Assembly (NCBI GenBank): GCA_023474425.1
Contig: JAMCXX010000003.1
Coordinates: 21,712-85,711 of the forward strand
Reading direction: 5' to 3'
Source of the DNA: Patescibacteria group bacterium
Lineage (GTDB): Bacteria > Patescibacteriota > WWE3 > JAMCXX01
DNA length: 64,000 nt
Numbering within the stretch: the stretch's first letter is position 1; every line of letters starts with the position of its first letter. Of the stretch, positions 4,999-54,163 are shown one piece after another. A program made the translations under genes and the position numbers. Below the pieces are notes generated by a model. That model saw only the letters and a list, made by a program, of their open reading frames with translations. It was not told the DNA's origin and did no database searches.

Positions 4999-5745
4999 TC
5001 AGAGGCCAAAAACTTTGTCCAAGTTTCCGTTAAGTATAGATTCTAAGTTGTGCCGGGTTTGGCCCGTGCGGTGGTCGGTAAGCCGGTCCTGTGGAAAATT
5101 GTAGGTTTTAATTTTATCGCTCCGCTCAACCGATCCAACCTGATCGCGTTTTAGACTATTAATGGAATCGGTCCTCTGTTCCTGCATCAACTGGTAGAGT
5201 TTACTTTGCAAAAGTTTCATGGCTCTCTCACGGTTTTGGTGCTGAAGCCGTTCTTCCTGGCAAGTCACCACAATGCCGGTAGGCAGGTGGGTAAGCCTTA
5301 CAGCCGTGGAAACTTTTTGCACATTCTGGCCGCCTTGGGACGAGGCGCGGTAGGCTTCAAATTTTATGTCGTCGGGGCGCAGGTTGATTTGGACCGGCGG
5401 CACGGAAGGTAAAACGACCACGCTTGCCGTCGAAGTGTGAATGCGCCCGGATTTCTCGGTTTTGGGGACTCTTTGCACACGGTGGACACCCGCTTCCTCA
5501 ACAAAAATCTCATAGAGATTTTTGAGGTGAGAGTTGATAGTTGATAGTTGATAGTTGGGCGCAGAGATTTCAAAAACGACTTCCTTGAGATTGCCTAAGC
5601 TGCCTTCGGAACGCGAAATTTCGGCCACCTTTAAACCGCGGCTTTGGGCAAACCTAGCGTACATTCGGTAAAGATCGGCGGCAAAAAGACCGGCTTCGTC
5701 ACCGCCCACGCCAGCTCTAATTTCAATTATGACGGAATTAACCAT
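4999..5745 (-). CDS. prfA: peptide chain release factor 1, short form lacking the N-terminal domain 1
   Basis: [12 protein letters not shown] start of domain 2. PxT-type tripeptide ([14 protein letters not shown]). GGQ motif ([23 protein letters not shown]). C-terminal [18 protein letters not shown]. In-frame TGA 33 nt upstream of the ATG. Confidence 0.85.
5526..5557. repeat. heptamer tandem array (GTTGATA x3 perfect plus flanking degenerate units) inside prfA
   Basis: Plus strand reads GGTGAGA GTTGATA GTTGATA GTTGATA GTTG. It is translated on the minus strand as [11 protein letters not shown]. Confidence 0.85.
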
Positions 5746-5746
5746 T

Positions 5747-5788
5747 CTTCTTGCTTCTTTCTTAATTCTTACTTCTCACTTCTTAATT
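5747..5788. repeat. six period-7 units (CTTCTTG CTTCTTT CTTAATT CTTACTT CTCACTT CTTAATT) filling the rpmE-prfA spacer
   Basis: Direct reading of the spacer between the rpmE stop (5789) and the prfA start (5745). Confidence 0.7.
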
Positions 5789-6115
5789 CTAGAGTGTGGG
5801 ATGCTTTTTTGCGTAAGCGAGCATTTCTTTGAGGCTTCTGGGCTGTTCCTCCCGTTCTTTTTGGACCTGTTTTTCGGTTTCTTTCTTAGTTTTACGATTC
5901 TCTTTAAGTTTGTTAGCCGTCGCTTGGCGTTTTTGGAACTTCTGTACCAGGCCTTCGGTGTCCACCAGTTTTTCCTGCCCGGTAAAAACAGGGTGGCAGG
6001 CGGCGCAAATGGCCACGCGGAGCTCCGGCTTGGTGGAGCCGGTGGTAAAGGTATTGCCGCAGCTGCAGGTAACTACGGCCTTTGGGTACCAGGTTGGGTG
6101 AATTCCTTGTTTCAT
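5789..6115 (-). CDS. rpmE: 50S ribosomal protein L31 with a ~40-aa Lys/Glu-rich C-terminal extension
   Basis: [11 protein letters not shown]...CSCGNTF...[11 protein letters not shown] (CxC...CxxC zinc ribbon). Followed by [30 protein letters not shown].... Confidence 0.9.
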
Positions 6116-6205
6116 ATAAAATGAGCGGGGTATAAGGTTATCTTAACGAATCCCGCCGATTAATTAAACCCGATTGACTGAATTTCGTCAACCCTGCCAC
6201 CCCGG

Positions 6206-7132
6206 CTATATTTTGAGGTCAATCACCAGATGGTCGTTGCGGTGGATGCGGATTTGAGCCAGATAGTGGTGAATCCGCTTTTCGGCAATATAAATGCCGG
6301 CAAAAATTAAGATTGTACCCAAAACATCGGCGCCGCTGATCTTTTCGTGTAAAAGAGGCACGGCAATGGCCGCTGCGGCAATGGGGTCGGCATAGAGAAA
6401 CATGCCCACGCGCGAAACGGTAAGCTTAGAAAGCCCCCAGGTCCAAAGAAAATAGGCCAAAAGGGAAGAGAAAAAAATGCCGAAGATAATCCCTGAAAGG
6501 CCGCGGACGTCCAGTTGAAGCAGGAATTCCGGGCGGCGGCTTAACTGCCAGTAGGCCGGGATAATAAAAGTGAGGGCGCCCGTGAGAAACATGCTGTAAG
6601 TCAAAAGGACCGGGTCGTATCTTTTTTGGACTTTTTTGACGATAATTTCGTAGCCGACCAGACTTAAAATGCTTAAAATGAGCAGGCTGTTGCCCAATAA
6701 GTCTTTGGAGAGACCGTAGCGCCAGACCGACTGCAGGGTGATTAAAAGAACTCCCAAAAGGCCGACGACCGAGCCTAAAAGCAGATTAAAGCTCTGTTTT
6801 TCGCGCAAAAATAGCCGGGCGCCAAGGATGGTAAAAACCGGCCCGGCACCGGCTATAATTCCGGCGTTAATAGCCGAGGTCAGGGAAATGCCCAGGAAGA
6901 AAAAAGCGACGTTGCCGGAAATACCCAAAAGCCCCAAAAGAATAATCCAGCCTACATCCCGCAGCTCAATTCTGGTTGATTTAAGAAACGGAATCAGGAA
7001 AATCGAAGCAATAAAAAACCGGACAAAAACCAGGGGGAAGATAGGGATGTTCTCAATGGACCACTTAAAAATAGGCGCGGCCGCGCCCCAAATAATCGAG
7101 GCAAAGATTAGGGCCAAAATGGGCAGGTTCAT
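6206..7132 (-). CDS. EamA/DMT-family permease
   Basis: 308 aa. About 10 hydrophobic helices arranged as two 5-TM halves, typical of EamA-repeat transporters. Confidence 0.75.
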   Translation of the reverse strand: MNLPILALIFASIIWGAAAPIFKWSIENIPIFPLVFVRFFIASIFLIPFLKSTRIELRDVGWIILLGLLGISGNVAFFFLGISLTSAINAGIIAGAGPVFTILGARLFLREKQSFNLLLGSVVGLLGVLLITLQSVWRYGLSKDLLGNSLLILSILSLVGYEIIVKKVQKRYDPVLLTYSMFLTGALTFIIPAYWQLSRRPEFLLQLDVRGLSGIIFGIFFSSLLAYFLWTWGLSKLTVSRVGMFLYADPIAAAAIAVPLLHEKISGADVLGTILIFAGIYIAEKRIHHYLAQIRIHRNDHLVIDLKI

Positions 7133-7188
7133 ATCAATATGACGCTGAGTTGATTTCTATCCTCGTTATTCTGGCAAGCGAAGGAGAG

Positions 7189-8496: not shown

Positions 8497-8533
8497 CTTT
8501 AAAGAATAACATAAGGCTTAAAACCAAACTACT

Positions 8534-8562: not shown

Positions 8563-8589
8563 CTCTTTCAAATAAGAGAGGAGGCAAGG

Positions 8590-10181: not shown

Positions 10182-10199
10182 AGACTAAATTATAACAGC

Positions 10200-11872: not shown

Positions 11873-12583
11873 TCAAGGGGTTGGCTTAGCGGCAGGCGTA
11901 GCCTGGGGCGTAGCTGCCGTTTGTGGCATAATTGCCACCAGCCGTCCTGTTAAAACTCCGGTATCCTCTTTAATAGCCACGGCCGCGACGGTTGCCCCGC
12001 TTAAAAGCTGGGCGGAGGTTACTTTTCGGCCGTTTTGTTCGAAAGCCGTCTGGCTATTAAAGTTTATTTCATAGGTCTGGTTGTTCGAACTAATAGTAAA
12101 AGAAGTGGCAGAAATCTGGTTGACGACTCCCATTAGGGCTACTTTGTTAATGATCTTGAGGACTTTGGATTTGGCTACTACCTCACGGGCGAGGAAGGTG
12201 CCATCGGTGGCGGCGGCGCCGGCGATAGCTACGCGGTCACCAACGGTTAGTTGGGAGAGATAGGCCAAACGCCCGCCGCGATAAAATTTGGTGACTTCGG
12301 TAGCGGTAACGCTGACGGCCGCTCCGTCGTCGGTATTTACCACCAAAACCTTGCCGGAAATACTTTGCAAGTCGCCCAGAAGAACTTTGCCGGCAAAGAG
12401 GTTGACGGTTTTTTGCTCGGAAGTCGAGACCGGCGGCGTTGAGGTCACAGCGGGATTACCCGTATCGCTTTGAGCCGTTACACGAGCAGAAACGATAGTT
12501 ATGAGTACCGGTAAAACGGCCAACAACAGTAAATTTTTGCGGGTTTTTAAAAGCTTCATAATTGACTTAAGGCATGTAAACAA
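11873..12583 (-). CDS. hypothetical secreted/membrane-anchored beta-rich protein
   Basis: Signal-anchor N-terminus. Repeated G-x-V...VGDRV type beta modules. Pro/Thr/Ala tail. Confidence 0.6.
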   Translation of the reverse strand: MFTCLKSIMKLLKTRKNLLLLAVLPVLITIVSARVTAQSDTGNPAVTSTPPVSTSEQKTVNLFAGKVLLGDLQSISGKVLVVNTDDGAAVSVTATEVTKFYRGGRLAYLSQLTVGDRVAIAGAAATDGTFLAREVVAKSKVLKIINKVALMGVVNQISATSFTISSNNQTYEINFNSQTAFEQNGRKVTSAQLLSGATVAAVAIKEDTGVLTGRLVAIMPQTAATPQATPAAKPTP

Positions 12584-13043
12584 CGTTCAATACTTCCGAT
12601 TTTGATTGTCCCTTGGAATCAAAAGCGGTAACCGTAATCTGATTTTCTCCCATGTCCAGAGCCAGAGTTGCCGAAAAAGCGCCGGAGACGTCGGCGGTCG
12701 CAATCGTTTCATCGGAGGCGTCGGACAGAGCCACCGAGGCCTTTGGACCGGTTGTTCCTTCTATGGTTAGAGTCGGGGAAGCAACCACATCCTGCATCTG
12801 CGGCGTATTGATATTTAATACAACACCCGTTGATTCCGGTGTGCCGGCCGATGGAGTGGATTGCGATTGGCTTTGTTCATTTTGCGGCGGTGTTAGAATT
12901 CCCTGATTGGGCGGATTTTGGCTGCGGTTGGAAAGAGCGTTGTACCAAACGTAAATAATGGCGATTAAAAGTCCCAGGGAAATGAGGGACAAAATAATTA
13001 GAAGCGGTTTTTCCGATTTGTTCATCGCGTCGTTTTTAGCCAT
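12567..13043 (-). CDS. hypothetical membrane-anchored protein with Ig-like C-terminal domain
   Basis: 158 aa. One TM helix, a low-complexity Q/S/P linker and a beta-rich C-terminus. Confidence 0.55.
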   Translation of the reverse strand: MAKNDAMNKSEKPLLIILSLISLGLLIAIIYVWYNALSNRSQNPPNQGILTPPQNEQSQSQSTPSAGTPESTGVVLNINTPQMQDVVASPTLTIEGTTGPKASVALSDASDETIATADVSGAFSATLALDMGENQITVTAFDSKGQSKSEVLNVVYMP

Positions 13044-17738: not shown

Positions 17739-17756
17739 CTCCCTAACATAAGACGT

Positions 17757-17882
17757 AATTTGAAGTTTTAAATTTACAATTTGAATTGAATTTTCAATGA
17801 CTCAATTTAAAATGTTTGAAATATTGAATCATTTGATGTTAATTTCAAATTTAAAAGTTCAAATTGAAAATTAAGTTTGATG
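17757..17882. repeat. AT-rich intergenic block of degenerate TTGA/TCAA period-7 units in both orientations
   Basis: AATTTGA AGTTTTA AATTTAC AATTTGA ATTGAAT TTTCAAT GACTCAA ... AGTTCAA ATTGAAA. Confidence 0.6.
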
Positions 17883-17901
17883 TATCTGCTATCCTTATAA
17901 T

Positions 17902-40834: not shown

Positions 40835-42940
<2,106 letters not shown>

Positions 42941-43690: not shown

Positions 43691-43781
43691 TATTAATATT
43701 AGTTATTCGCATCCATTTTAATCAAGCTTGATTGATTGACAGTTTAGGTCCGGTTTGCGAAACTATCATTATAATCTGTCC

Positions 43782-45509
43782 ATGAAAACCGAGAATCGAA
43801 AGAATGTAGAAGATATTTTAGCGGAGAAAGGGCTTTTAACCCCAGAGCAGGTTTCCGCTGTTAAGTTTGAGCGGGTGAATACCGGCAAGACCGGGGAAGC
43901 CATAATTCAAGAACGGGGTTATGTGGGCCCCGACGAACTGGCCAAAGCCCGCGCCGAGATTTTAAACATTCCTTTTGTTGAAGTTGGTTCCCGTTCTATT
44001 CCTACCCAGATTTTAGATCTTGTTCCCCAACCGGTGGCTCAAAAATACCGGCTCATTCCTTTTGCCAAGGATGGCGGAAAGCTTCAGGTGGCTATGGTTG
44101 ACCCGCTGGATTTACAGGTGATTGAGTTTATTGAAAAGCGGGCCGGGACATCGGTTGAGCCATATCTGGCCGTGCCCGAAGATATCGATAAAGCTATCGG
44201 AGAACAGTATGCTAAAAGCCTGGGCACCGACGTAACCGCCGCTTTGGAAGAGGCCGGAGTCACCAAAACAAAAATCGATGAGCAGTTAAAAAATATTGAG
44301 ACGGCTAACGAAACCTTGAGAGACGCGCCGGTTTCGCGAATTGTTTCTACTCTTCTGGAGTATGCCGTTAAAGCCCGGGCTTCAGACATTCACATTGAAC
44401 CGATGGGTGACCGTACCCGGGTGCGTTACCGGATTGACGGCGTTCTTCAGGAGAGACTAAGTATTCCCACCAAAGTCCACAACAGCATTGTTTCACGGAT
44501 TAAAATTCTATCCGATTTGAAAATCGACGAGCATCGGTTGCCACAGGACGGCAGGTTTAAAATAATCTTGACGGACAACGAAGTAGATCTTAGGGTTTCT
44601 ACACTCCCCACCGTCTTCGGCGAGAAAGTGGTTATTCGTCTACTTAAGGAAAAGGGCCGGGTTATGACTCTCCAGCAGTTGGGTTTGACCGGAATTTCTT
44701 TTAAAAGAGTAGAAAATAATCTAAGCAAGCCTTACGGGGTGATGCTTGTTACCGGCCCAACCGGTTCAGGAAAAACGGTAACTCTGGCTTCCTGTTTAAC
44801 ACAAATTTCCACAAACAAGGTTAACATTATCACTCTCGAAGACCCTGTAGAAATCCAAATTCCCGGTACAAATCAGGTCCAGATTAATCCTCAAGCCGGT
44901 TTAACTTTTGCTTCCGGTCTTCGTTCTATTTTGCGTCAGGACCCCAACATTATTATGGTTGGAGAAATTAGGGACCGGGAAACGGCCGAGCTTTCCATTC
45001 AAGCGGCTTTAACCGGACATCTAGTTTTTTCTACTCTGCACACCAACAACGCCGCCTCCGCCCTGCCTCGGCTTTTGGATATGGAGGTTGAGGCTTATTT
45101 GCTTATTTCCACAATAAACGCTGTTATTGCGCAGAGACTGGTGAGACTTGTTTGCAAATCATGCAAGGTTTCGGTGGAAATGCCCAAAGAAGTAAGTGAG
45201 AAGATGAAGCAGGTTTTGGGTCCCCTCTACGACCAGAAGGTTAAGGCGCTCGGGGGAAAGTTGAGTCTAGCCAAAGGCAAAGGCTGTGAACAGTGTGAAC
45301 ACACCGGCTATTCCGGTCGAACGGGAATTTTTGAAGTTTTGGAAATGAGCGAGAAGCTTGGGCAGTTGACGCTTAACCACCGTCCCAGTTCCGAGTTAGA
45401 CGCGCAGGCAATTGAGGAAGGCATGGTTACCCTCCTCCAGGATGGATTTATGAAAGTTCTTGACGGTCAAACGACTCTCGAGGAGGTTTTGCGTGTGGCC
45501 GAGGAATAA
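43782..45509 (+). CDS. pilB: type IV pilus assembly ATPase PilB (GspE family)
   Basis: N-terminal MshEN-like domain. Walker A GPTGSGKT. Asp/His boxes. Tetracysteine CKSC...CEQCEHTGYSGR. Start taken at the ATG at 43782. Confidence 0.9.
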   Translation: MKTENRKNVEDILAEKGLLTPEQVSAVKFERVNTGKTGEAIIQERGYVGPDELAKARAEILNIPFVEVGSRSIPTQILDLVPQPVAQKYRLIPFAKDGGKLQVAMVDPLDLQVIEFIEKRAGTSVEPYLAVPEDIDKAIGEQYAKSLGTDVTAALEEAGVTKTKIDEQLKNIETANETLRDAPVSRIVSTLLEYAVKARASDIHIEPMGDRTRVRYRIDGVLQERLSIPTKVHNSIVSRIKILSDLKIDEHRLPQDGRFKIILTDNEVDLRVSTLPTVFGEKVVIRLLKEKGRVMTLQQLGLTGISFKRVENNLSKPYGVMLVTGPTGSGKTVTLASCLTQISTNKVNIITLEDPVEIQIPGTNQVQINPQAGLTFASGLRSILRQDPNIIMVGEIRDRETAELSIQAALTGHLVFSTLHTNNAASALPRLLDMEVEAYLLISTINAVIAQRLVRLVCKSCKVSVEMPKEVSEKMKQVLGPLYDQKVKALGGKLSLAKGKGCEQCEHTGYSGRTGIFEVLEMSEKLGQLTLNHRPSSELDAQAIEEGMVTLLQDGFMKVLDGQTTLEEVLRVAEE

Positions 45510-45512
45510 ACA

Positions 45513-46571
45513 ATGAAGGTTAACGAGCTTTTGCAAAAAGTAATCGATACCGGCGGTTCGGATTTGCATCTAACCGTGGGAGCGCCTCCGGCCATTCGGA
45601 TTGACGGTAAACTCTTTTTTCAAACCGATTTGGAACCTCTTAATTCAACCCACGTGGAAGATTTGGTGAAGGAGGTTCTTAACGACGAGCAGGTAGAGGC
45701 GCTTGAAAAAAACCGTGAGATTGACCTCTCCTTTGCTTTCTCCGACGAGGCTCGCTTTCGTACCAACGTCTTTCATCAGCGTGGTTACCTGGCCGCTGTT
45801 ATGAGGCTAATTCCTCTTTCCGTGCCAACGCTCGACGAACTTAACCTGCCCCGTTCCCTTTATTCATTTTGTTCTCTGCCGCAAGGGTTTGTACTGGTTA
45901 CCGGACCGGCCGGCCAGGGAAAGTCCACGACCATGGCCGCTCTTATTAATTATATTAACGAAACGCGTCAGGTTCATATTATTAGTATTGAAGACCCGAT
46001 TGAGTACGTTTTTCCCCATAAAAAGTCGATTGTTGATCAGCGGGAAATTAATTTGGATACCAAAAGTTGGGGGGTGGCCCTGCGCAGTGTTTTGCGGGAG
46101 GATCCCGATGTGGTCATGGTCGGAGAGATGCGGGACCCGGAAACGATGGCTGCGGCCGTAACCATTGCCGAAACAGGGCATTTGGTTTTTGCCTCCATTC
46201 ACACAAACAGCTCCTCGCAGTCGATTGATCGGATAATTGATGTTTTTCCCGAGTATCAGCAACAGCAGATTAGGGTCCAACTCGCCTCAATTCTCGAGGG
46301 TGTTATTTCTCAGAGGCTAATACCTGCCTTAAACGGCGGTCGGGTTCCGGCCGTGGAAATTATGTTGCCTACTCCGGCGGTGCGTTCGGTTATAAGAGAG
46401 GGAAAAACCCATCAACTCGATAATATTATTTCTACTTCCTTTGAAGTGGGTATGGTTTCTCTCGAACGTTCCTTGGCCGACTTAGTAAAGTCCGGCAAAG
46501 TAGAGGCGAACGTGGCCAAACAACACACGGTCCGCCCCGAAGATTTAATGAGGTATTTAAGAGGGATATGA
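45513..46571 (+). CDS. pilT: twitching-motility retraction ATPase PilT
   Basis: GSDLHL, Walker A GPAGQGKST, MVGEMRD and GHLVFASIHT. 352 aa. Confidence 0.9.
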   Translation: MKVNELLQKVIDTGGSDLHLTVGAPPAIRIDGKLFFQTDLEPLNSTHVEDLVKEVLNDEQVEALEKNREIDLSFAFSDEARFRTNVFHQRGYLAAVMRLIPLSVPTLDELNLPRSLYSFCSLPQGFVLVTGPAGQGKSTTMAALINYINETRQVHIISIEDPIEYVFPHKKSIVDQREINLDTKSWGVALRSVLREDPDVVMVGEMRDPETMAAAVTIAETGHLVFASIHTNSSSQSIDRIIDVFPEYQQQQIRVQLASILEGVISQRLIPALNGGRVPAVEIMLPTPAVRSVIREGKTHQLDNIISTSFEVGMVSLERSLADLVKSGKVEANVAKQHTVRPEDLMRYLRGI

Positions 46572-46574
46572 AAA

Positions 46575-46609
46575 AAATTCTAAATTCTCAACTCTCAATT
46601 TTTAATTGC
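46575..46609. repeat. heptamer array (AAATTCT AAATTCT CAACTCT CAATTTT TAATTGC) in the pilT-pilC spacer
   Basis: Direct reading of the 42-nt spacer. Confidence 0.75.
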
Positions 46610-46613
46610 GGTT

Positions 46614-47825
46614 ATGCCTACTTTTGATTACCGGGCGCGGGACAAAGAGGGTAAAGTAATTACCGGGACGGTTGAGGCCGGGAACGAAAACATTGCCGCC
46701 TCGGTTATTTCTCAGCGGGGCTGGATACCGACTTTAATTTTGCAGAAAGGCAGCCGGTCAGGATTTCTTGGACCGGTTAGATTATTTGGTAGCGGGATAT
46801 CAAGCACCAAGCGGACGGTTTTTACCCGTCAACTAGCAACAATGGTAAACGCGGGCTTACCTCTAACCCAGTCATTAGAGATTTTGTATAAACAATCAGC
46901 AGGAACGCGTTTGGGCGAGGTCGTGGAGCAGATTTTTCACGATGTGGAGGCCGGCAGCACCCTTAATCAGAGTATGGCCAAGTATCCGGAGGTTTTTAGC
47001 CGAGTTTACGTAAATTTAGTTAAAGCCGGCGAGGCTTCGGGAAGTTTAGATAAAGTTTTAAACCGGTTGGCGGAAAATGAAGAAAAGATGAACGAATTTA
47101 CCGGTAAAGTGAAAGGAGCCTTTGTTTATCCGGTAATTGTTCTTTTTGTAATGGCAGTAGTTTTTGTGGTGATGATGGTTTTTGTCGTCCCAAAGCTTGT
47201 GCTTATGTATCGTGATCTGGGTACCGCTTTGCCATTACCGACTAAAATCTTGATCTGGATTTCCGACCTCTTTACCAAACGATTTTATCTGCCGTTAGGT
47301 TTTGTTATTGCTGCGGTAATCGGTTATCGTTATTTCTCTCAGAGTGATTATGGCATTCGTGAAACTTCGAGACTCGCATTTAAGATCCCAATTTTTGGAA
47401 ATCTCAAAAAGCAGTCGGAACTCACCGAGTTCGCCAGAACGTTAAGTTTATTGGTTTCGGCCGGAATACCAATTCTAGATGCCTTGAGTATTGTTTCCGA
47501 AGCGATTAACGACCCTGTTTACCGTGAGGCTCTTAAGGAAGCGTCCGCGCAGGTTGAAAGGGGCGCCCCCCTTTCCAACTATCTTAAGGCTAACGATAAT
47601 TTTCCGCCGCTCCTTTCACAAATGATTGCCGTGGGCGAAGAAACCGGCAAGCTGGATGAGGTGCTTTTAAAAGTTTCATCTTTTTTTGAAAATGAAACGG
47701 AAAACGCACTTAAGGCGCTGACCGTTGCTCTGGAGCCAGCCATTATGATTGTTTTGGGAATTCTTGTGGCCCTCTTGGTTATATCAATTATTATGCCGAT
47801 CTATCAGTTAACTTCGGCTTTCTAG
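46614..47825 (+). CDS. pilC: type IV pilus platform protein PilC (GspF family)
   Basis: Two T2SSF repeats (FTRQLATMVNAGLPL... and FARTLSLLVSAGIPI...). 3 TM helices. 403 aa. Confidence 0.9.
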   Translation: MPTFDYRARDKEGKVITGTVEAGNENIAASVISQRGWIPTLILQKGSRSGFLGPVRLFGSGISSTKRTVFTRQLATMVNAGLPLTQSLEILYKQSAGTRLGEVVEQIFHDVEAGSTLNQSMAKYPEVFSRVYVNLVKAGEASGSLDKVLNRLAENEEKMNEFTGKVKGAFVYPVIVLFVMAVVFVVMMVFVVPKLVLMYRDLGTALPLPTKILIWISDLFTKRFYLPLGFVIAAVIGYRYFSQSDYGIRETSRLAFKIPIFGNLKKQSELTEFARTLSLLVSAGIPILDALSIVSEAINDPVYREALKEASAQVERGAPLSNYLKANDNFPPLLSQMIAVGEETGKLDEVLLKVSSFFENETENALKALTVALEPAIMIVLGILVALLVISIIMPIYQLTSAF

Positions 47826-47867
47826 CCAATTTAAAAGAATTTTAACTGTGAGAGGGGGTGAGGAGAA

Positions 47868-48332
47868 GTGAAAAAAGGTTTTACGCTAATCGAACTTCTA
47901 GTGGTGATTGCCGTTATCGGTATTTTGGCAGCTGTGGTGGTTGTGGCTATTGACCCAGCTAAAAAGCTTGGCCAGTCACGCGACGCTTCACGCAAAACCG
48001 GAATTGGCCAAATTGTAACGGCCCTAGTAAGTTATTATACCCAGAAAACGTCATATCCGGCGGCGCTGTCTGATCTTCAGTCACAGGGAGAGCTTAAAAC
48101 AATTCCGGTTGGACCAACCGGCGCCTCCTTCAACTACGCGGTGACTCCGGCCGGTTGTACCACTGCCGGTAAAGATTGTACAGCGGCGGTTATTTACGAT
48201 TCCTACGAATACCCCAACAATCCTTGTACCACCGGCAATGCGTTCTGGGGCTGGACTTCAGGTACCGGTCAGGTTGGCAAGATCTGTTCTTCCTCAACGC
48301 CAACCCCCGCCGATACCCCGGTTACGGATTAA
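47868..48332 (+). CDS. type IV (pseudo)pilin, probable major pilin
   Basis: Class III signal MKKG/FTLIELLVVIAVIGILAA with Glu+5. Strong SD. First pilin after pilC. Followed by a stable hairpin. Cys pairs in the C-terminal half. Confidence 0.85.
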   Translation: MKKGFTLIELLVVIAVIGILAAVVVVAIDPAKKLGQSRDASRKTGIGQIVTALVSYYTQKTSYPAALSDLQSQGELKTIPVGPTGASFNYAVTPAGCTTAGKDCTAAVIYDSYEYPNNPCTTGNAFWGWTSGTGQVGKICSSSTPTPADTPVTD

Positions 48333-48361
48333 CCTATATTGGTTAGGCGTTATTTTAAGAT

Positions 48362-48398
48362 GGGAAGGTCGGGTGGGCTTTGGCCCACCCGCCTTCCC
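48362..48398 (+). promoter_or_regulatory. GC-rich stem-loop after the major pilin gene (attenuator/processing candidate; no U-tract)
   Basis: GGGAAGGTCGGGTGGGC-TTT-GGCCCACCCGCCTTCCC, a ~16-bp stem with one bulge. Confidence 0.5.
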
Positions 48399-48420
48399 GG
48401 TGTCGGGTCACTACTAATTT

Positions 48421-48954
48421 ATGAGAATCGATATTCTTGGAAATCGCCGCTTTGGTGTGGCCGGCGTTACCTTAATTGAGCTGATGATAACTATCGCCGG
48501 CATTGCCGTTTTGGCCTCAATCCTGGTGACGGTAATTAATCCGGTTTCTTATCAGCAAAAGGCTAGGGATTCGGTGCGGCTTCGGGACCTAAATACCTTG
48601 AAATCGGTGATTATTTTAGCTTTGCAAAACGGAGGAACATTTACCGGAAGATGTACGGCCGCAAGCCCTTGCAACAGTCTTGCGGGCGGATTAAATGTAG
48701 ACGGTTCGGGTTATGTGGATTTGCCTCTGCCCGGATACCTAACCCAACTGCCCGCCGACCCTCTTTCCTCACACAACACTTTTGTTGATGGTACGGGAGC
48801 CACTGTACCTTCAGCCTATCTTTTCGCCGAGAGCGGCTCGGACTTCGAAATTAAAGCTCACTTTGAATCATCATCGAATACCGACCGTTATTCCAGCGAC
48901 GGCGGGACGGATAACACTTCTTATGAGGTTGGTACGAAGTTGAATATCTTTTGA
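48421..48954 (+). CDS. prepilin-like protein
   Basis: Leader MRIDILGNRRFGVAG / VTLIELMITIAGIAVLASI with Glu+5. Confidence 0.7.
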   Translation: MRIDILGNRRFGVAGVTLIELMITIAGIAVLASILVTVINPVSYQQKARDSVRLRDLNTLKSVIILALQNGGTFTGRCTAASPCNSLAGGLNVDGSGYVDLPLPGYLTQLPADPLSSHNTFVDGTGATVPSAYLFAESGSDFEIKAHFESSSNTDRYSSDGGTDNTSYEVGTKLNIF

Positions 48955-49011
48955 ACGGATTAAGGATTCAGTAGTAAAGAATTAAGTTATGTATTCTCTA
49001 TTTCAAATCCA

Positions 49012-49104
49012 GTCATTGCGAATATACGGCTGAAGCAATCTCCCGAGAATGCGGGGCTGACACGAGGTCAGAGATCGCCACGGGTCGTGACACCTCGCGA
49101 TGAC
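49012..49104. repeat. palindromic element (GTCATTGCG...CGCGATGAC) upstream of and overlapping the pilD start
   Basis: Outer inverted repeat 49012-49020 / 49096-49104. Inner hairpins ATTGC..GCAAT and CTGAC..GTCAG. Confidence 0.6.
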
Positions 49105-49930
49105 AAGACACATTAGTCATGTTTTTATGTACCACTTTTTTTCAAATTTCGAGCTTACAAGCTTATTAACTTATTGCTTAGTTCTTGCCTTCGGTGCCTG
49201 TGTCGGCTCTTTTTTAAACGTGGTGATTGACCGTTTTCCGGCTGGCCAATCAATTCTTGGACGCTCTCGGTCGGATTGTTGCGCGCGAACTTTGGGTGTT
49301 TGGGATTTAATTCCCATCTTAAGTTTTATGTTTTCGAGAGGAAGGTGCCGATATTGTAACCATCATCTTTCTTTTTATTATCCCTTAGTTGAGGCATCAG
49401 CGGCGATTTTGACTTTGATTTTCTATCTTATTTTTCCTCTCCCTCACTTTGTTTTTTATGCCGTAAACGGCTACTTTTTAATTATCTATTTTTTTATGGA
49501 CCTTAAGTACGGTTTGGTTTCTTCGGCGGTTTTCTCTTTAAATATTTTTTTTACCGTTTCTTGCCTACTTTACCTTTTATACCGTCGCGAGCTCAGCCTT
49601 GCCCAAATGGAGCTAACGGCGGTTTCCGGCTTTATTCTCGCCTTGTTTTTCTTATTCTTAATCTTAATGACGCGGGGTCGGGGCATGGGTTTGGGCGATA
49701 TTCTTTTGGTTTTGGCGCTTTCCCTTTTTCTGGGTTTTCCTCTTTCTCTGGTTATGATTTTCTTAAGTTTCTTTTTAGGTGGTCTAGCGTCAATCTTTTT
49801 ACTTCTACTTGGTAAAAAGAAAATTGGCCAGACGGTTCCCTTTGGTCCGTTTCTTACCCTCTCGTCTCTGCTTGCTTTGTTTTGGGGTAATGTTTTAATT
49901 AACTTTTATCTGCGTTATCTTTTAGGGTAG
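49100..49930 (+). CDS. pilD: prepilin peptidase (A24 family)
   Basis: GACVGSFLNVVIDRFP. Cys pairs DCC...CRYC. Catalytic Asp regions GRGMGLGD and PFGPFL. Start may be the ATG at 49127 instead of 49100. Confidence 0.85.
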   Translation: MTRHISHVFMYHFFSNFELTSLLTYCLVLAFGACVGSFLNVVIDRFPAGQSILGRSRSDCCARTLGVWDLIPILSFMFSRGRCRYCNHHLSFYYPLVEASAAILTLIFYLIFPLPHFVFYAVNGYFLIIYFFMDLKYGLVSSAVFSLNIFFTVSCLLYLLYRRELSLAQMELTAVSGFILALFFLFLILMTRGRGMGLGDILLVLALSLFLGFPLSLVMIFLSFFLGGLASIFLLLLGKKKIGQTVPFGPFLTLSSLLALFWGNVLINFYLRYLLG

Positions 49931-49951
49931 CGCATATAAGTACTATAGAAA

Positions 49952-50407
49952 ATGAAAGAAGGTTTTACTCTCATAGAGCTTATGGTGGTTATTGCCATCG
50001 TCGGAATTCTGGTGGTGGTGGTAATTATTACCCTAAACCCCGCCCAAAGGGTCGGAGATGCCCAAAAAGCAGCCATTTCCGCTCAGACTTCCGCTTTGGG
50101 TTCTATTTACGAACTCTGTTTAAATTATGTTGACACGCAGGCGGTGCCGGCGGTGCAAAACTCACCAGCTGATTGCGGTTTCACCGGTTCGCCGAACTCC
50201 ACGTTTATTAACAACTTAACCACGACCGCCCCGGGCGCCCCTTTTTTGAAATCTCCGCCCAGCACGGGTAACTTTATTTTGACAGGAGCCGGTGTGATTA
50301 ATGTTACCGGTTGTATTAACGGTATTAGCGGCAGTTATTACGCTCAATTTCAAAGTTACAACAATAAGGTTCTGGTGGGAAGCGGCGACCCGCCGAATTG
50401 TCCTTAA
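49952..50407 (+). CDS. type IV pilin-like protein
   Basis: MKEG/FTLIELMVVIAIVGIL. Confidence 0.85.
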   Translation: MKEGFTLIELMVVIAIVGILVVVVIITLNPAQRVGDAQKAAISAQTSALGSIYELCLNYVDTQAVPAVQNSPADCGFTGSPNSTFINNLTTTAPGAPFLKSPPSTGNFILTGAGVINVTGCINGISGSYYAQFQSYNNKVLVGSGDPPNCP

Positions 50408-50409
50408 AG

Positions 50410-50444
50410 CATTTGACATTTGACATTTTACATTTGACAATTAA
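50410..50444. repeat. heptamer array CATTTGA CATTTGA CATTTTA CATTTGA CAATTAA (TTGA sense)
   Basis: Direct reading. Starts 3 nt after the stop of the 49952 pilin gene. Confidence 0.85.
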
Positions 50445-50452
50445 TCAGAGCG

Positions 50453-50938
50453 ATGACGAAGTCTAACCTTCAACTTTCAACTTTCAACTTTCAACTTATT
50501 CGTGGTTTCACCCTTATAGAGATGCTCGTGACCATCGCCATTATTGTAATTGTGTCTGGGGCACTGATTGTAGGTATTAATCCCACTAAAAGACTTCAAG
50601 ACGCGCAGGACGCCCGGGCCAAGCAAGATGTGCGGGCCATTGCGTCGGCGGTGGAATCTTGTATGTCTTATGTAAACCCCGCGACCAATACGGCCAACTC
50701 TAATGACCCGAATACAAACTGCAGTCCCGGTTCTAAGCTGGCGCCGGGAAGCACCACCCCAGGGTCCCCCTTCACTAGGGCGGCGCCGCCGAGCAATATT
50801 ATTTTCTTAACCAGCATTAGTAATACCAATGTTTGTTTTTACGAGCAGGGTAGCACCAATCCGGCCAACTACTGGGTTTATCAGACTAATACTGGATTGG
50901 TTCAAAGCCAATCAACCGTTCCAAACTCCTGTCCCTAG
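50453..50938 (+). CDS. type IV pilin-like protein with a long repeat-encoded leader
   Basis: MTKSNLQLSTFNFQLIRG/FTLIEMLVTIAIIVIV. Confidence 0.8.
   Translation: MTKSNLQLSTFNFQLIRGFTLIEMLVTIAIIVIVSGALIVGINPTKRLQDAQDARAKQDVRAIASAVESCMSYVNPATNTANSNDPNTNCSPGSKLAPGSTTPGSPFTRAAPPSNIIFLTSISNTNVCFYEQGSTNPANYWVYQTNTGLVQSQSTVPNSCP
50467..50497. repeat. heptamer array CCTTCAA CTTTCAA CTTTCAA CTTTCAA CTT (TCAA sense) inside the pilin leader
   Basis: Three perfect plus one variant unit, translated as NLQLSTFNFQL. Confidence 0.9.
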
Positions 50939-50962
50939 TTCTTTTATTTCTGATCAATACTC

Positions 50963-51394
50963 ATGAACAAACTAGAGCAAAGAAAATTACTTGGTTTTAC
51001 TCTAATCGAGCTCGTTGTTGTTATTTCAATTATTACTATTTTGGTTGGTTCCCTTTTTGCGGTAATACGACCGCAGGATTTCTTAAGTCGTAGCCGAGAC
51101 TCACGTCGCCAATCCGACCTTAAACTCATTCAAACGGCTTTAGAGCAGTACTATGCCAATAACAACAGCTACCCGTCGGCGACTCCCTTAGCCGGCTCGA
51201 GCTGGACCTATAATGGAGTTACCTACCTAAGAAGCGTGCCCAAGGACCCCAATGGCAACACCAACTATTGTTACAACTATAATTCTCCCAATTATGAGCT
51301 CTGCTCAAAGTTCGAGGGTCCCGTCCCATCTGGCTTCAGCTCTCCCGTCGCCTGTGGCGCTAATTTTAACGGCTGTCTCACCAACCCCTTCTGA
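50963..51394 (+). CDS. type IV pilin-like protein (GspG-like)
   Basis: MNKLEQRKLLG/FTLIELVVVISIITIL and SRRQSDLKLIQTALEQYYANNNSYP. Confidence 0.85.
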   Translation: MNKLEQRKLLGFTLIELVVVISIITILVGSLFAVIRPQDFLSRSRDSRRQSDLKLIQTALEQYYANNNSYPSATPLAGSSWTYNGVTYLRSVPKDPNGNTNYCYNYNSPNYELCSKFEGPVPSGFSSPVACGANFNGCLTNPF

Positions 51395-51464
51395 AGTTGA
51401 AAGTTGAGAGTGGAAAGTGGATAGTTAAAGAGTGGGTAAAAAATTTTCAACTTTCAATTTTTCC
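51395..51464. repeat. paired heptamer arrays flanking the next pilin start
   Basis: TTGA-sense array 51395-51436: AGTTGAA AGTTGAG AGTGGAA AGTGGAT AGTTAAA GAGTGGG. TCAA-sense array 51444-51464: TTTTCAA CTTTCAA TTTTTCC. Confidence 0.85.
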
Positions 51465-51953
51465 GCCGCGTTCACCCTCATTGAACTTCTCGTTGTCATT
51501 GCCGTCATAGGCGTTCTTTACGCCATTTCCATTGGCGTTCTTCAGCCGGATGTTCAGAAAAAAAGAGTCCGGGACGCGCAGCGCCTTGCCGATTTGGGTC
51601 GCCTGCAGTCGGTTATTGAAGCTTATATCTCCGACCACGGGGTGCCGCCGGACGTGAGCGGTTTGGTGAGAGTCAGCAATGTGCCGGTTAGTTCCGGTTC
51701 CAACCCTTCCCGTTCCGACGGCAGCGGTTGGCTGGGCGTAGACCTCTCCAGCTGGTTGGATAAATTGCCGGTCGACCCTCTGAACGCCGGTTCTTACGTC
51801 TATCGTTACGAACGGGTCGGCGGAAACTACGAACTCGACGCAGGTCTGGAATACTACACCAATTTAATGTTAGACAGCGCCCCGGGCGGCGACGGCGGCA
51901 ACAGCGATAATAGATTGGAAAAAGGCACGGATTTAACTATTTTGGGGAACTAG
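51432..51953 (+). CDS. type IV pilin-like protein with a repeat-encoded leader
   Basis: GTG start. MGKKFSTFNFSAA/FTLIELLVVIAVIGVL, with Ala rather than Gly at -1. Confidence 0.7.
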   Translation: MGKKFSTFNFSAAFTLIELLVVIAVIGVLYAISIGVLQPDVQKKRVRDAQRLADLGRLQSVIEAYISDHGVPPDVSGLVRVSNVPVSSGSNPSRSDGSGWLGVDLSSWLDKLPVDPLNAGSYVYRYERVGGNYELDAGLEYYTNLMLDSAPGGDGGNSDNRLEKGTDLTILGN

Positions 51954-51987
51954 AATTGACAATGGACAATGCACAATTGACAATTAA
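51953..51987. repeat. heptamer array GAATTGA CAATGGA CAATGCA CAATTGA CAATTAA
   Basis: Direct reading. Fills the spacer before the 51991 ORF. Confidence 0.85.
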
Positions 51988-51990
51988 CTT

Positions 51991-52350
51991 GTGAGTGAAC
52001 GGGGTAAAGACATCCTCGAAAGGTCAAAGCGTTTTGCCATTAAGATAATTAAATTGTCGGGACACTTGCCAAGAACTCCCGCCGGGTTTGTGATTGCCGA
52101 ACAACTTATCGGATGTGGGACTTCAGTTGGTGCGAACACCGTTGAAGCACAAGATGCCTCATCGAGAAAAGACTTTATTAATAAGATGAGTATTGCCCTG
52201 AGAGAGTGCCGAGAGTCTAAGTATTGGTTGAGTATTATTCAGTAGTCAGGTTTATTGAGAGGAGACGAATTAATGTTATTGATTGAGGAAAGTAATCAAC
52301 TTTGCGCTATTTATTCTGCAATTGTAAAAAATGCGAGAAATCATCAATAG
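51991..52350 (+). pseudogene. four-helix-bundle protein (23S rRNA IVS protein / Avd-like family) interrupted by an in-frame TAG
   Basis: RSKRFAIKIIKL...GTSVGANTVEAQDASSRKDFINKMSIALRECRESKYWLSII-Q-TAG(52243-52245)-SGLLRGDELMLLIEESNQLCAIYSAIVKNA. Both parts are in the same frame. Confidence 0.6.
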
Positions 52351-52966
52351 CTCCCAACACACCTGCTTGTATCACAAAGGAACTGGTCGTTCGGATAATT
52401 TATCAATTCTCAATTCTCAATTCTCAATTTCCTCCGCCTTTACGCTAATTGAACTTTTGGTGGTTATTTCTATAATTGCCATCCTCACCGCCGGAGCTAT
52501 TCCCTCATTTAGCGGATTTACAAGGTCACAAGCCCTGATTCAAAGTTTTAAGAACTTAAAATCGGATTTAAGAGTGGCTCAAAGTCGTTCTCTTTCCGGT
52601 GCGGCTGTTGCCAAGGGCGGTGTGCCCACCGCCCAAGCCTGGGGCGTACACCTAACTCAAGGGAGTCTAACCTACAGTCTTTTTAGTTGTGACCCGGTGG
52701 CAACGGTTAGCCAATATTACCAATATAATTTTTTGGCCTGTACATCTGTTGGGGGGTATAACAAAACTGTCAATTTGGGTGCTAATGTAAAAATATTGAC
52801 GCTCTCCGCAAATCCCCTGGACGTAGTTTTTGATTCCCAGAACGGTGCCATTGTAGTAAACGGGGCTTCGATTTCTTCGAACGTTATTATTACACTGGAC
52901 TATTCCTCCGGAGGTAGTTCGCCCCAAACTATTACTATTACTCCTCAAGGCGGGATTTCCGATTGA
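52331..52966 (+). CDS. minor pilin-like protein (GspH/FimT-like); start uncertain
   Basis: ...LSILNSQFSISSA/FTLIELLVVISIIAILTAGAIPSF. The only ATG upstream is 52331, which overlaps the pseudogene tail. Confidence 0.65.
   Translation: MREIINSSQHTCLYHKGTGRSDNLSILNSQFSISSAFTLIELLVVISIIAILTAGAIPSFSGFTRSQALIQSFKNLKSDLRVAQSRSLSGAAVAKGGVPTAQAWGVHLTQGSLTYSLFSCDPVATVSQYYQYNFLACTSVGGYNKTVNLGANVKILTLSANPLDVVFDSQNGAIVVNGASISSNVIITLDYSSGGSSPQTITITPQGGISD
52400..52434. repeat. heptamer array TTATCAA TTCTCAA TTCTCAA TTCTCAA TTTCCTC inside the minor-pilin leader
   Basis: Direct reading. Translated as LSILNSQFSIS. Confidence 0.9.
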
Positions 52967-53577
52967 GGAAGTTGAAAATTGAAAATGTAAAGTGGAAAAT
53001 TAAAAGTATGAGGTTAAAAATTTCCGTCTGGGGCGGACAAGCCTTTGGCCGGGAAAAGGGAAAATGGAAAGTTAAGGTGACCGGAGGCCGACATTCAATT
53101 GTCAATTCTAAATTGTCAATTCTAAATTTTTCCGGTCAGACTCTTATTGAAACAGTTGTGGCCCTAGCTGTAGTTATTGTACTCGTTGCTTCCCTGCTCT
53201 CCGTTTCCATCGTCAGCGTGCGCAGTGCTACCCTTTCCCGTAATCAGGCCGTTGCTTCACAGCTGGCATATAAAGAGTTGGAAAACGTACGCAATGCCCG
53301 CGATTCAAGCCCAACCTGGTCCTCTTTTTATAATCAGTTCGTGAGTGGAATCTGCACCTCAACCTGCTACACCTCTTGTAACTCCGCCAGCTGCACCCTT
53401 TACTCTTCGGGGGTTAAAACCGTTACGGCCAACGATGTAGGCACAACTTTTACCGTTTCCATAAGCGGCTCCGCTATCTCGTCCGATACCATTCAAGCTA
53501 AATCAAGCGTCGGCTGGACCGATTCGTCTGGAACCCACACGCAAGTTTTGGTAACCAAATTCACCGCCTGGCAATAA
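52963..53577 (+). CDS. minor pilin-like protein (PilV-like); N-terminal ~55 aa are repeat-encoded and the true start is uncertain
   Basis: ...SIVNSKLSILNFSG/QTLIETVVALAVVIVLVASLL with Glu+5. Confidence 0.6.
   Translation: MRKLKIENVKWKIKSMRLKISVWGGQAFGREKGKWKVKVTGGRHSIVNSKLSILNFSGQTLIETVVALAVVIVLVASLLSVSIVSVRSATLSRNQAVASQLAYKELENVRNARDSSPTWSSFYNQFVSGICTSTCYTSCNSASCTLYSSGVKTVTANDVGTTFTVSISGSAISSDTIQAKSSVGWTDSSGTHTQVLVTKFTAWQ
52968..53133. repeat. composite element: TTGA-sense heptamers, GC-rich centre, TCAA-sense heptamers
   Basis: 52968-53009: AAGTTGA AAATTGA AAATGTA AAGTGGA AAATTAA AAGTATG. Centre: GTCTGGGGCGGACAAGCCTTTGGCCGGG. 53092-53133: CATTCAA TTGTCAA TTCTAAA TTGTCAA TTCTAAA TTTTTCC. 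Confidence 0.75.
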
Positions 53578-53580
53578 TTT

Positions 53581-54111
53581 ATGAAAGGGTTTACCTTAAT
53601 TGAGCTTCTTATCGCTATTTTTGTAACCGTGATTATTTTTGCCGTTGCCGGTGATGTTCTCGTTTCTGTTTTAAGATCTTCGAACAAATCCAACATATTA
53701 AACGAAATTAGCCAGAACGCGGATTTTGTCTTAAACAGTATTGAGTCTACCGCCCGTAATGGCAAATGCGCCTATATGAGCAGCGGCAATTTGGTGATTG
53801 TTGACCAATTTAATCAGGTAAATATCTTTAGCTTCGGCCCAAATCCCAACGGGTCTGGTTCCAGCGTTTTTAAGCAGGCTGGGGTCGGGACGCCGGCGGC
53901 TCTGACCAACACCGATTTGGTCGGCGGTGTAGATGTTGATAGAAGCGCGTCTTCCTTTAATGTACTTTCAGATAATCCCTTAAGCTGTACGGCCAAGAGG
54001 CCTTTAATCCAGGTAGTGCTACGCCTTCGCCAGGCACCCAACGCCTCGTCACGCATTGATTACCAGGCCGGCTCCACTTTCTACAAGAGTATTGAAGTTA
54101 GAAATTACTAG
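53581..54111 (+). CDS. minor pilin-like protein (PilW-like)
   Basis: MKG/FTLIELLIAIFVTVIIFAVAG. Confidence 0.7.
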   Translation: MKGFTLIELLIAIFVTVIIFAVAGDVLVSVLRSSNKSNILNEISQNADFVLNSIESTARNGKCAYMSSGNLVIVDQFNQVNIFSFGPNPNGSGSSVFKQAGVGTPAALTNTDLVGGVDVDRSASSFNVLSDNPLSCTAKRPLIQVVLRLRQAPNASSRIDYQAGSTFYKSIEVRNY

Positions 54112-54114
54112 AAA

Positions 54115-54163
54115 GCAAGTAAGTTATAAGTTGGTAAGAATTAAGTTTGGAAAATTAGTTCTT
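54115..54163. repeat. degenerate period-7 AAGT-type units
   Basis: GCAAGTA AGTTATA AGTTGGT AAGAATT AAGTTTG GAAAATT AGTTCTT. GCAAGT (54115) / ACTTGC (54169) form an inverted repeat. Confidence 0.5.

Follow-up and report, generated by a model that had tools for sequence, protein, structure and literature searches.

Dispersed heptanucleotide arrays in a Patescibacteria contig and their likeness to 23S rRNA intervening sequences

Period-7 arrays of the window

The 64,000-nt stretch of contig JAMCXX010000003.1 from a Patescibacteria group bacterium analysed here (the window, hereafter) carries a dispersed family of short tandem arrays of 7-nt units, mainly built on a core that reads TTGA in one sense and TCAA in the other. 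Most of these arrays, about 11 in the 64 kb, are intergenic or sit at gene 5' ends. Their surroundings are mostly ordinary housekeeping genes of the Candidate Phyla Radiation (CPR), as judged by Pfam on ~50 open reading frames (ORFs), and include the gene for GyrB (40835-42910, minus strand) and a type IV pilus operon (43755-54111, plus strand) encoding PilB, PilT, PilC, the major pilin, PilD and seven further pilins or pseudopilins. The host was placed in Patescibacteria/Microgenomates; the nearest other GyrB is 73-75% identical, and those of Levybacteria and other Microgenomates are ~60% identical.

The original prediction had posited such a family from the letters of the DNA, and its existence is borne out by each of the measures that we applied. 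A phased-core scan, demanding TTGA or TCAA at a fixed phase in 3 units with at most one mismatch, found 10 loci at period 7 compared to a mean of 0.41 (sd 0.63, maximum 3) in 200 dinucleotide shuffles, and 0-1 loci at periods 5, 6, 8, 9 and 10. The tandem-repeat finder (TRF) run that had been proposed as a check gave period 7 in 15 of its 44 output rows for the window. A match-run scan at a score of at least 14 returned five arrays at period 7 and four at period 14, none at all remaining periods from 4 to 15, and none at any period in 20 dinucleotide shuffles. A frequency no higher than in shuffled sequence of the same composition had been named as the result that would speak against the family; within the window the arrays stand far above the shuffles. 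We therefore regard it as confirmed that the period-7 arrays are real and form a dispersed family far above chance. The core is better written TTGAnA(n), with TTGATAG, TTGAAAG, TTGACAT and TTGACAA among the units seen, and the arrays span 2-6 units.

About 11 of the 14 arrays listed originally are solid (5526-5557, 5759-5790, 41050-41120, 46575-46600, 50410-50439, 50465-50497, 51394-51435, 51954-51985, 52403-52429, 52972-53007 and 53095-53128), and three are weak. The stretch at 17757-17882 is really an AT-rich imperfect inverted repeat (17746-17883; TTGAA/TTCAA words; 61 nt, 72% complementary) and not a period-7 array; the stretch at 54115-54163 (plus strand), after the last pilin gene, is a degenerate purine-rich period-7 tract without a TRF call; the array at 51444-51464 has 2 units only. 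We regard the first two as doubtful members. That the whole family reflects an artefact of assembly, or low-complexity sequence arisen by chance, has a practically negligible probability in our estimation: such an account suits these three weak arrays only, and it is contradicted by ten phased loci where 0.4 are expected, at period 7 alone, by ORFs that stay open throughout the arrays, by an orthologous array in the gene for release factor 1 (RF1) of two independent assemblies (L209 and L212), and by GyrB and RF1 proteins that are unchanged in NCBI.

Convergent arms in spacers, leaders and protein loops

Read on either strand, a complete element consists of about four TTGAnAn units followed by one of TTAA type, then a short loop rich in A and 2-4 nTnTCAA units. 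A complete hairpin element of this kind lies on the plus strand between two pilin genes (51394-51464), where the TTGA/TGGA arm (51394-51436) and, across a short loop, the TCAA arm at 51444-51464 are predicted to form a 19-bp stem of -21.5 kcal/mol. Duplexes were computed for five arm pairs, and three of them (-21.5, -21.3 and -11.7 kcal/mol) are better than shuffled controls. The insert in gyrB and three pilin-junction elements align arm to loop to arm, these four copies being of such low complexity that homology and convergence are inseparable. We consider it probable that the arrays are the arms of small composite heptanucleotide elements, that is, convergent hairpins resembling the intervening sequences (IVSs) of 23S rRNA, which are specific to this lineage, filtered by reading frame, and mainly selfish or neutral.

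The remaining members on the plus strand belong to the pilus operon. A TCAA-sense array (46575-46609; AAATTCT AAATTCT CAACTCT CAATTTT) lies between the pilT stop codon and the pilC start. Further on, a TTGA-sense arm of four TTGACAT units (50410-50444) lies 3' of a pilin stop codon, and a TCAA-sense arm of four CTTTCAA units (50465-50497) forms the leader of the pilin encoded at 50453-50938, which reads MTKSNLQLSTFNFQLIRG ahead of the mature FTLIEM. Upstream of the pseudopilin gene 52963-53577 stands a composite element (52968-53133) whose TTGAAAA/TGGAAAA arm is followed by a GC-rich insert containing GGAAAAT units (53026-53090); its TCAATTG/TCAATTC arm (53092-53133) is translated as ...SIVNSKLSILNFSG before QTLIE. 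One more element, at 51953-52434, encloses a gene and is taken up in the next section. On the minus strand, a composite element lies in frame in a hypervariable linker of GyrB (41046-41172); in the gene sense, GAAAGTG units come first, then a GC palindrome (41123-41145) and, after it, a degenerate TTGA/TGGA arm and a CAACTCT/CAACTTT arm. Recurrence of the same peptide in unrelated proteins (GyrB, RF1 and the prepilin with SNLQLSTFNFQLIRG), as pointed out originally, is confirmed.

It had also been proposed that arrays obey a rule of orientation relative to coding sequence. A TGA recurring at a 7-nt period strikes all three frames within 21 nt, so that an intact array of TTGA sense would close any ORF; for the TGA-bearing sense of TAACTGA repeats this has been stated before (MacGregor 2015, PMC4679880). 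The rule holds as an observation, since the coding-embedded arrays of the window are all of TCAA sense, and a table of orientation against coding strand for 135 TCAA arrays from other genomes, of the kind that had been asked for, has 37 inside ORFs in sense and none antisense; as a rule in its own right it reduces to this simple arithmetic. Where arrays are paired, the inverted partner precedes the array in 30 cases and follows it in 4. If the arrays are arms of convergent hairpins, the TTGA arm comes first on either strand, and the orientation rule is a by-product of stop codons and convergent pairing. Degeneration of TTGA to TGGA was read as stop avoidance; TGGA units occur in non-coding copies too (51411-51424 and 52993), and therefore stop avoidance is not their sole explanation. 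Recoding of UGA was considered as well and is unlikely, as ORFs called with the standard code have normal lengths, including those ended by TGA, such as pilT.

The junctions between pilin genes follow a common order: stop codon, TTGA-sense arm of about four units, TTAA-type unit, short loop, TCAA-sense arm and mature pilin N-terminus (G or A, then FTLIE). The only usable start codon lies in the loop (e.g. GTG 51432), and at four pilin 5' ends the stop-free TCAA arm is read as a long leader, in frame in all four, giving four prepilins with repeat-encoded leaders of 14-30 residues. Loci syntenic with this region in three relatives (L201-L205, 73 kb; gene order gyrA-pyrophosphatase gene-gyrB-holB-pilBTC-pilins), whose GyrB proteins align to that of the window at 75-77% identity, have no period-7 array, and their pilin orthologs have MKKG or MKRG leaders behind GGAGG Shine-Dalgarno sites, as in L201, where the leader ends ...IMKRG before FTLIEM. 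In the pilins of the window's lineage, arrays thus appear to have taken the place of Shine-Dalgarno sites and short leaders. We rejected the notion of a conserved paralogous protein motif for these leaders: their period is 7 nt and not 3, the units differ between paralogs, and the orthologs have short canonical leaders. Because the syntenic relatives are free of arrays and their orthologous pilins have short leaders, the arrays are lineage-specific additions, and, as far as synteny and alignment can tell, the elements are shown to have entered the lineage after its split from the nearest sampled relatives.

Inside genes, the same elements occupy positions that vary among relatives. The GyrB linker that holds the insert ranges from 0 to ~70 aa among relatives. 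The gyrB palindrome (CCTGCCTTGCCGGCAGGCAGG, 41123-41145) encodes LPAGKAG, and more distant Microgenomates GyrB proteins have LPAGRAG or MPAGEG at the same position of the linker, which suggests that a second small palindromic repeat may recur there. The RF1 array (5526-5557, minus strand; CAACTAT three times and CAACTCT in the gene sense) fills one surface loop, and an orthologous array occurs at the same codon positions in L209 and L212. The loop corresponds to ~6 units in register in the window (TATCAAC three times and TCTCACC), in L209 (TCTCAAT TGTCAAT TGTCAAT TCTCAAT) and, decayed, in L206, compared to ~3 units in L212 (TCTCAAA TCTCAAG TCTCAAA) and, decayed, in L210 and L213. Long and short loops differ by exactly 21 nt, that is, 7 aa or 3 units, and the units are homogenised within each species. 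We infer slippage or unequal exchange of which perhaps only frame-preserving steps survived.

This behaviour of the RF1 array, changing in place by three units and homogenised within itself, would be expected also if arrays simply arose as local microsatellites, each independently from a chance proto-repeat under a general preference for 7-nt slippage, with no element, no mobility and no tie to a protein. Unit sequence does vary among the loci of the window, and heptamer simple sequence repeats are over-represented in many bacteria, with polymerase slippage as the proposed cause (Rehm et al. 2015, PMC4692102, citing Mrazek 2007). We nevertheless consider such local genesis unlikely as the full explanation, since it leaves unexplained the common TTGAnA core in this genome, the 30:4 bias in the placement of convergent partners and the arm-loop-arm architecture with its TGGA and TTAA units.

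A regulatory role in cis was considered next to composite elements, with TTGA arrays as self-phased sigma-70 promoters and TCAA arrays adjusting translation, either as unstructured leaders free of G or as sites for protein binding. The best two sigma-70-like matches between 46.4 and 54.4 kb are arrays (TTGACA-17-GACAAT at 50413 and 51956), and arrays at 51397 and 52972 match as well. Three predicted starts (GTG 51432, GTG 51991 and ATG 53008) lie 7-8 nt past a -10-like hexamer, none with a Shine-Dalgarno site. RNA of the TCAA sense folds at 0 kcal/mol. Roles for heptamers in translation or transcription have been proposed or supported by data for Beggiatoaceae (PMC4679880), for the (TTTTGAA)3 repeats of Nostoc (10.1101/2022.06.06.494920) and for the TTTTGAT heptads of the V. 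cholerae cholera toxin promoter, PctxAB. Against these points, matches to the consensus are built into the unit and are no proof of use; arrays lie also within gyrB and the RF1 gene, where neither a promoter nor a leader is of use; and the syntenic relatives express the same operon without arrays. We consider regulation as the primary explanation quite improbable. As a matter of geometry, the TTGAnAn unit supplies a -35 element (TTGAnA) and, three units on, a -10 element (GAnAnT), at 50413-50441, 51397-51425, 51956-51984 and 52972-53000, and the distance from -35 to +1 equals five units (35 nt).

CTCTT repeats in the leaders of Neisseria opa genes are a known parallel for phase variation, and by analogy slippage of one unit in the four pilin 5' regions might shift the frame and so turn individual minor pilins on and off. 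Seven is not a multiple of 3, and in the 5' coding regions of these four surface-protein genes the arrays stand between the only usable start and the mature pilin, all in frame. Phase variation by heptanucleotide tracts has been documented in neuO of E. coli K1 and HMW1A of H. influenzae, where the tracts are of ~9-40 perfect units and demonstrably heterogeneous (PMC13001214, PMC8262952), and repeat number in the Coxiella IVS differs between strains (PMC4990558). The window arrays resemble the neuO and HMW1A tracts: in both, a 7-nt unit is repeated at the promoter or 5' end of a surface-related gene, and the number of units sets the reading frame. They differ in that a long uninterrupted tract is absent from the pilin 5' regions, which have 2-4.5 imperfect units (74-100% match by TRF), and in that the family extends to the essential gyrB and RF1 genes and to spacers; moreover, over species-level divergence the RF1 array changed solely by frame-preserving three-unit steps. 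Contingency loci are for these reasons a very unlikely primary explanation, less likely than regulation in cis. Neither alternative is exclusive of the composite-element explanation, to which we return below.

Some observations concern neighbouring genes. A perfect GC-rich hairpin (GGGAAGGTCGGGTGGGC...GCCCACCCGCCTTCCC, 48340-48400) stands 3' of the major pilin gene (47868-48332) and is likely an intra-operon terminator or attenuator that sets the ratio of major to minor pilins. A membrane H+-pyrophosphatase is encoded between gyrB and gyrA (38764-40782), likewise in L201 and L202, and L203 has a soluble inorganic pyrophosphatase (12054-12590) at that position. The purine-rich period-7 array at 5747-5788 (minus strand; GAATTAA GAAGTGA GAAGTAA GAATTAA GAAAGAA) had been assigned to prfA; it is intergenic, in the spacer between the rpmE stop codon and the RF1 start, and lacks a TTGA core. 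We rejected the idea that it splits prfA, because the upstream ORF encodes L31 and a short RF1 is typical of the clade. The RF1 of the window (4999-5745, minus strand; 248 aa, covering PCRF profile positions 100-194 only) is without N-terminal domain 1, as in all close relatives (239-259 aa), and L31 (rpmE, 5789-6115, minus strand; 108 aa) has a ~40-aa lysine/glutamate-rich C-terminal extension that is conserved in its counterparts in relatives (107-108 aa). In relatives, a second, purine-rich heptamer type (AAGAATT/AAGAAGT) lies 5' of an orthologous gene for a 356-357-aa protein, at 7264-7296 in L213, in the spacer after rpsR, and at 7548-7564 in L209, where it extends up to the last bases of the contig; in the window the purine-rich array is that upstream of prfA. 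Since this type occurs in the window, L213 and L209, some arrays are common to species of the clade.

IVS protein genes between heptamer arms

The element at 51953-52434 (plus strand) consists of an arm, a gene of the PF05635/TIGR02436 family (the 23S rRNA IVS protein; IVP gene, hereafter) and an inverted arm. The first arm (51953-51987) reads TTGACAA TGGACAA TGCACAA TTGACAA TTAAC, and the inverted arm (52400-52431), four TCAATTC units, belongs also, as leader region, to pilin ORF 52331-52966. The IVP gene (51991-52350) matches PF05635 with E = 6.8e-17, TIGR02436 with E = 4.8e-21 and PDB 2rld with E = 1.6e-17. An in-frame TAG (52243-52245) interrupts it, beyond which a family-like C-terminal helix goes on for 34 codons, and so the gene is presumably a pseudogene or bears an error of sequencing. 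Its 3' end contains the ATG (52331) annotated as start of the pilin ORF that follows. An IVP gene is present in one of about six elements in the window.

An exact-pattern scan for 3.5 units of TCAAYTN (TCAAYTNTCAAYTNTCAAYTNTCAA) across 185,579 species genomes gave at least 120 matches compared to ~0.5 expected by chance, as estimated for uniform composition. By hand count, about half of the matches listed are from Bacteroidota and about a fifth from filamentous cyanobacteria (Microcoleus, Rivularia, Calothrix and Richelia among them); Acidobacteriota, Ignavibacteria, Oscillospiraceae/Tissierellia and six CPR metagenome-assembled genomes (MAGs) are also found among the matches listed. All four IVP genes that occur among the 120 listed array loci are bracketed by a TTGA-sense and a TCAA-sense arm; their hosts belong to Bacteroidaceae, Flavihumibacter, Oscillospiraceae and Chromatiales.

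For a set unbiased with respect to repeats, we took 80 metagenomic IVP loci picked by protein similarity alone. A period-7 array lies within 200 nt of the IVP gene upstream in 34 of 76 cases, downstream in 38 of 74 and on both sides in 24 of the 70 for which the two flanks are readable, compared to 9, 5 and 3 of 108 for control ORFs in the same 80 loci; array density is 2.3 per kb beside IVP genes vs 0.36 per kb in other intergenic DNA. The two arms are mutually reverse-complementary, with 0-1 mismatch per consensus unit, at 24 of 27 doubly flanked IVP genes, and the G-rich arm comes first in 16 of these genes and the C-rich arm in 1. Arms lie close to the IVP ORF, with a median gap of 12-15 nt, some of them abutting the ATG and the stop codon. 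An independent set from taxonomically named hosts, of plasmid genes annotated as 'four helix bundle protein', agrees: 10 of 12 are flanked by arrays, across five phyla, with hosts including Treponema, Bernardetia, Euhalothece, three Nostoc, Planktothrix, Gloeocapsa, Chlorohelix and Dolichospermum.

These counts bear on two of the alternatives above. Bracketing of IVP genes by reverse-complementary arms, 24/70 vs 3/108, is a further regularity that local genesis of microsatellites leaves unexplained. The flanking heptamers differ from locus to locus (AATTCGG, GTGTAAA, AAATGCA, AGGTTTG and others), and those such as AATTCGG, GTGTAAA, AAGTCGG and ATTTTAG are not promoter-like, many of them having a Shine-Dalgarno spacer before the ATG, which counts against regulation in cis as the general role.

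At 8 of the 12 plasmid loci the IVP gene stands between two co-directional genes, as in hsdS-IVP-hsdR, helicase-IVP-DNA methylase, DUF1156-IVP-HEPN and RND adaptor-IVP-permease. In two Nostoc plasmids it adjoins xisH/xisI. TAACTGA repeats and XisH/XisI are reported to have a common phylogenetic distribution (PMC4679880); we dropped co-occurrence with XisH as a lead, XisH being found only in the cyanobacterial loci and not in the window.

As for precedents, the Coxiella 23S IVS has GACAGAT 3-4 times beside the S23p start codon, with a copy number that varies between strains, and its 28-bp stem is cleaved by RNase III within the array, at the first repeat (PMC4990558). In the papers searched we found this one published hint and no generalisation of a link between heptamers and IVP genes, and the general link appears to be unreported.

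Interpretation and comparison with known heptamer systems

The composite-element explanation that we favour could work as follows. Heptanucleotide elements would have inserted into this lineage after its split from the sampled relatives and would persist only where they are tolerated, namely in operon spacers, at four pilin 5' ends, in the GyrB linker and in the RF1 surface loop. Replication slippage would then alter them in 7-nt steps, of which, to go by RF1, perhaps only 21-nt steps are tolerated inside genes. Selection would clear TGA-bearing arms from ORFs and leave the stop-free TCAA arms, to be translated as leaders. In transcripts, the better-paired copies might form stems that RNase III could cut, by analogy with the Coxiella IVS. 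The elements would be mainly selfish or neutral, and copies without an IVP gene may be non-autonomous derivatives.

Several observations weigh against this explanation. The census of this genome covers the 64-kb window alone. Pfam on the ~50 ORFs of the window gave no transposase or reverse transcriptase as a mobilising enzyme. No pair of empty and filled sites and no target-site duplication was seen, the intergenic DNA of the syntenic relatives being too diverged to align. The units vary among loci within one genome, unlike those of fresh mobile-element copies. Of the five pairs of arms, two have hardly any pairing (50410/50467, -5.4 kcal/mol; 52968/53095, z = -0.5), and whole-region RNA folds are no better than those of shuffles; as no region has a fold z-score below -1.8, we set aside any generic claim of structured RNA. 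Among the listed array loci elsewhere, 116 of 120 have no IVP gene nearby, and about half of the IVP genes are without an array. Mismatches between the arms of IVP genes have no G-U bias in the sense RNA (33 vs 36), and hence complementarity of the arms is not demonstrably selected at the RNA level.

The sole recombinase in the window is a conserved XerC/D-like gene (34739-35656), near the 3' end of which an unrelated heptamer, ACCCCAC, is repeated 2.6 times (35475-35492). Rfam at gathering thresholds reported two tRNAs only for the window, no RNA family match at the arrays and no rRNA gene.

One may extend the argument, tentatively, beyond this lineage: heptamer arrays across bacteria (the cyanobacterial short tandemly repeated repetitive sequences, STRR; TAACTGA-type; GGGAATC-type; and the window family) might largely be arms or orphan arms of one IVS-like class of selfish elements, whose autonomous form encodes the PF05635 Avd-like four-helix-bundle protein. 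We regard this extension as possible, if on the doubtful side. If true, the element is not specific to rRNA and invades spacers of pilin, restriction-modification, efflux and defence operons, gene 5' ends and even permissive loops of essential proteins; a stop-rich arm, a start codon in the loop and a stop-free arm would let it be tolerated or co-opted as an N-terminal leader, and the IVP protein could bind the repeats, or work with a reverse transcriptase as Avd does.

Irrespective of how far the argument extends, the window adds the CPR to the range of a known but unexplained class of repeats, and its arrays illustrate how repeats rewrite proteins, here four prepilin leaders and repeat-encoded loops of GyrB and RF1. 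The bracketing of IVP genes by convergent arrays, in our opinion the part most worth following, provides a testable tie between two puzzles, the excess of 7-nt repeats in bacteria and the function of the '23S rRNA IVS protein'. In annotation, some caution is advisable, as in MAGs rich in repeats it may be these that have given rise to start codons, to leader peptides and to 'insertions' within conserved genes.

How the window family relates to known systems can now be considered. The original prediction offered the cyanobacterial STRR repeats as its closest analogy, which is apt, given TCAAYTN arrays in Microcoleus, Rivularia and Calothrix among the matches listed. STRR heptanucleotide repeats were reportedly described from Calothrix/Nostoc by Mazel et al. 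in 1990; PMC4692102 mentions them as well. The likeness consists in over-represented 7-nt units in short head-to-tail arrays at many dispersed, mostly intergenic loci (for our family, within one window), with tolerance inside some genes. The differences are that STRR has CCCCAGT, TTGGTCA and CAACAGT units in heterocystous cyanobacteria, compared to TTGAnAn in a Patescibacteria MAG, so that the canonical STRR1-3 units and hosts are not those of the window, and that the window arrays are short (2-6 units) and mostly in convergent pairs. Cyanobacterial IVP genes are themselves flanked by STRR-type arrays, for example CTGGTCA repeated 13 times in Euhalothece.

Rickettsia palindromic elements (RPEs) are elements of 100-150 nt of unique sequence, some of which lie in frame at surface positions of conserved proteins and leave these intact. 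The window elements resemble them, and repeats akin to repetitive extragenic palindromes or miniature inverted-repeat transposable elements, as small dispersed hairpin-capable repeats in a reduced genome, with in-frame insertion as in GyrB and RF1. They differ from RPEs in being arrays of 7-nt units rather than unique sequence, and no transposition footprint was seen for them.

That no such family had been described was too strong a statement on the part of the original prediction, since STRR, TAACTGA, GGGAATC and the Nostoc (TTTTGAA)3 repeats are published. TAACTGA repeats occur in sets of 2-6 copies in Beggiatoaceae, Cyanobacteria and Bacteroidetes, abut start codons and differ between strains by indels in 7-nt steps; in reverse sense within ORFs they add a 7-aa periodic peptide at protein peripheries, and in BOGUAY (Orange Guaymas "Maribeggiatoa") nearly every set is a solitary direct repeat and a single indirect repeat occurs (PMC4679880). 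In the window, four TTGA arms, a small sample, end 7-17 nt 5' of predicted start codons. Common to both families, the TGA sense is kept out of ORFs and the reverse sense is found inside them at protein peripheries or loops; the unit differs, convergent pairs dominate in the window, and a link to IVP genes is unmentioned in PMC4679880. The Xanthomonas GGGAATC repeats include 70-75 cases of two convergent arrays on opposite strands, and array length varies between related strains while the single or paired type is kept (Rehm et al. 2015, PMC4692102). With GGGAATC/GGGGAYT of Xanthomonas and Nostoc the window family has in common intergenic heptamer arrays and convergent pairs; those repeats differ in being G-rich and quadruplex-forming, without a TGA core, and neither coding insertions nor an enclosed gene is mentioned in PMC4692102.

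Lastly, the 23S rRNA IVSs of Coxiella and Leptospira that carry an S23p/IVP ORF have inverted repeats closing a PF05635-bearing loop, and the window element at 51953-52434 is laid out alike, with a PF05635 ORF in the loop and tandem heptamers in the arm beside the ORF start. It differs in standing between pilin cistrons rather than in helix 25 or 45 of 23S rRNA (the window has no rRNA), in its interrupted ORF and in arms that pair imperfectly, and most copies in the window are without an ORF, some being translated within host proteins. Taken with these comparisons, the window family belongs to the known class of bacterial heptanucleotide repeats and is not a new kind of system.

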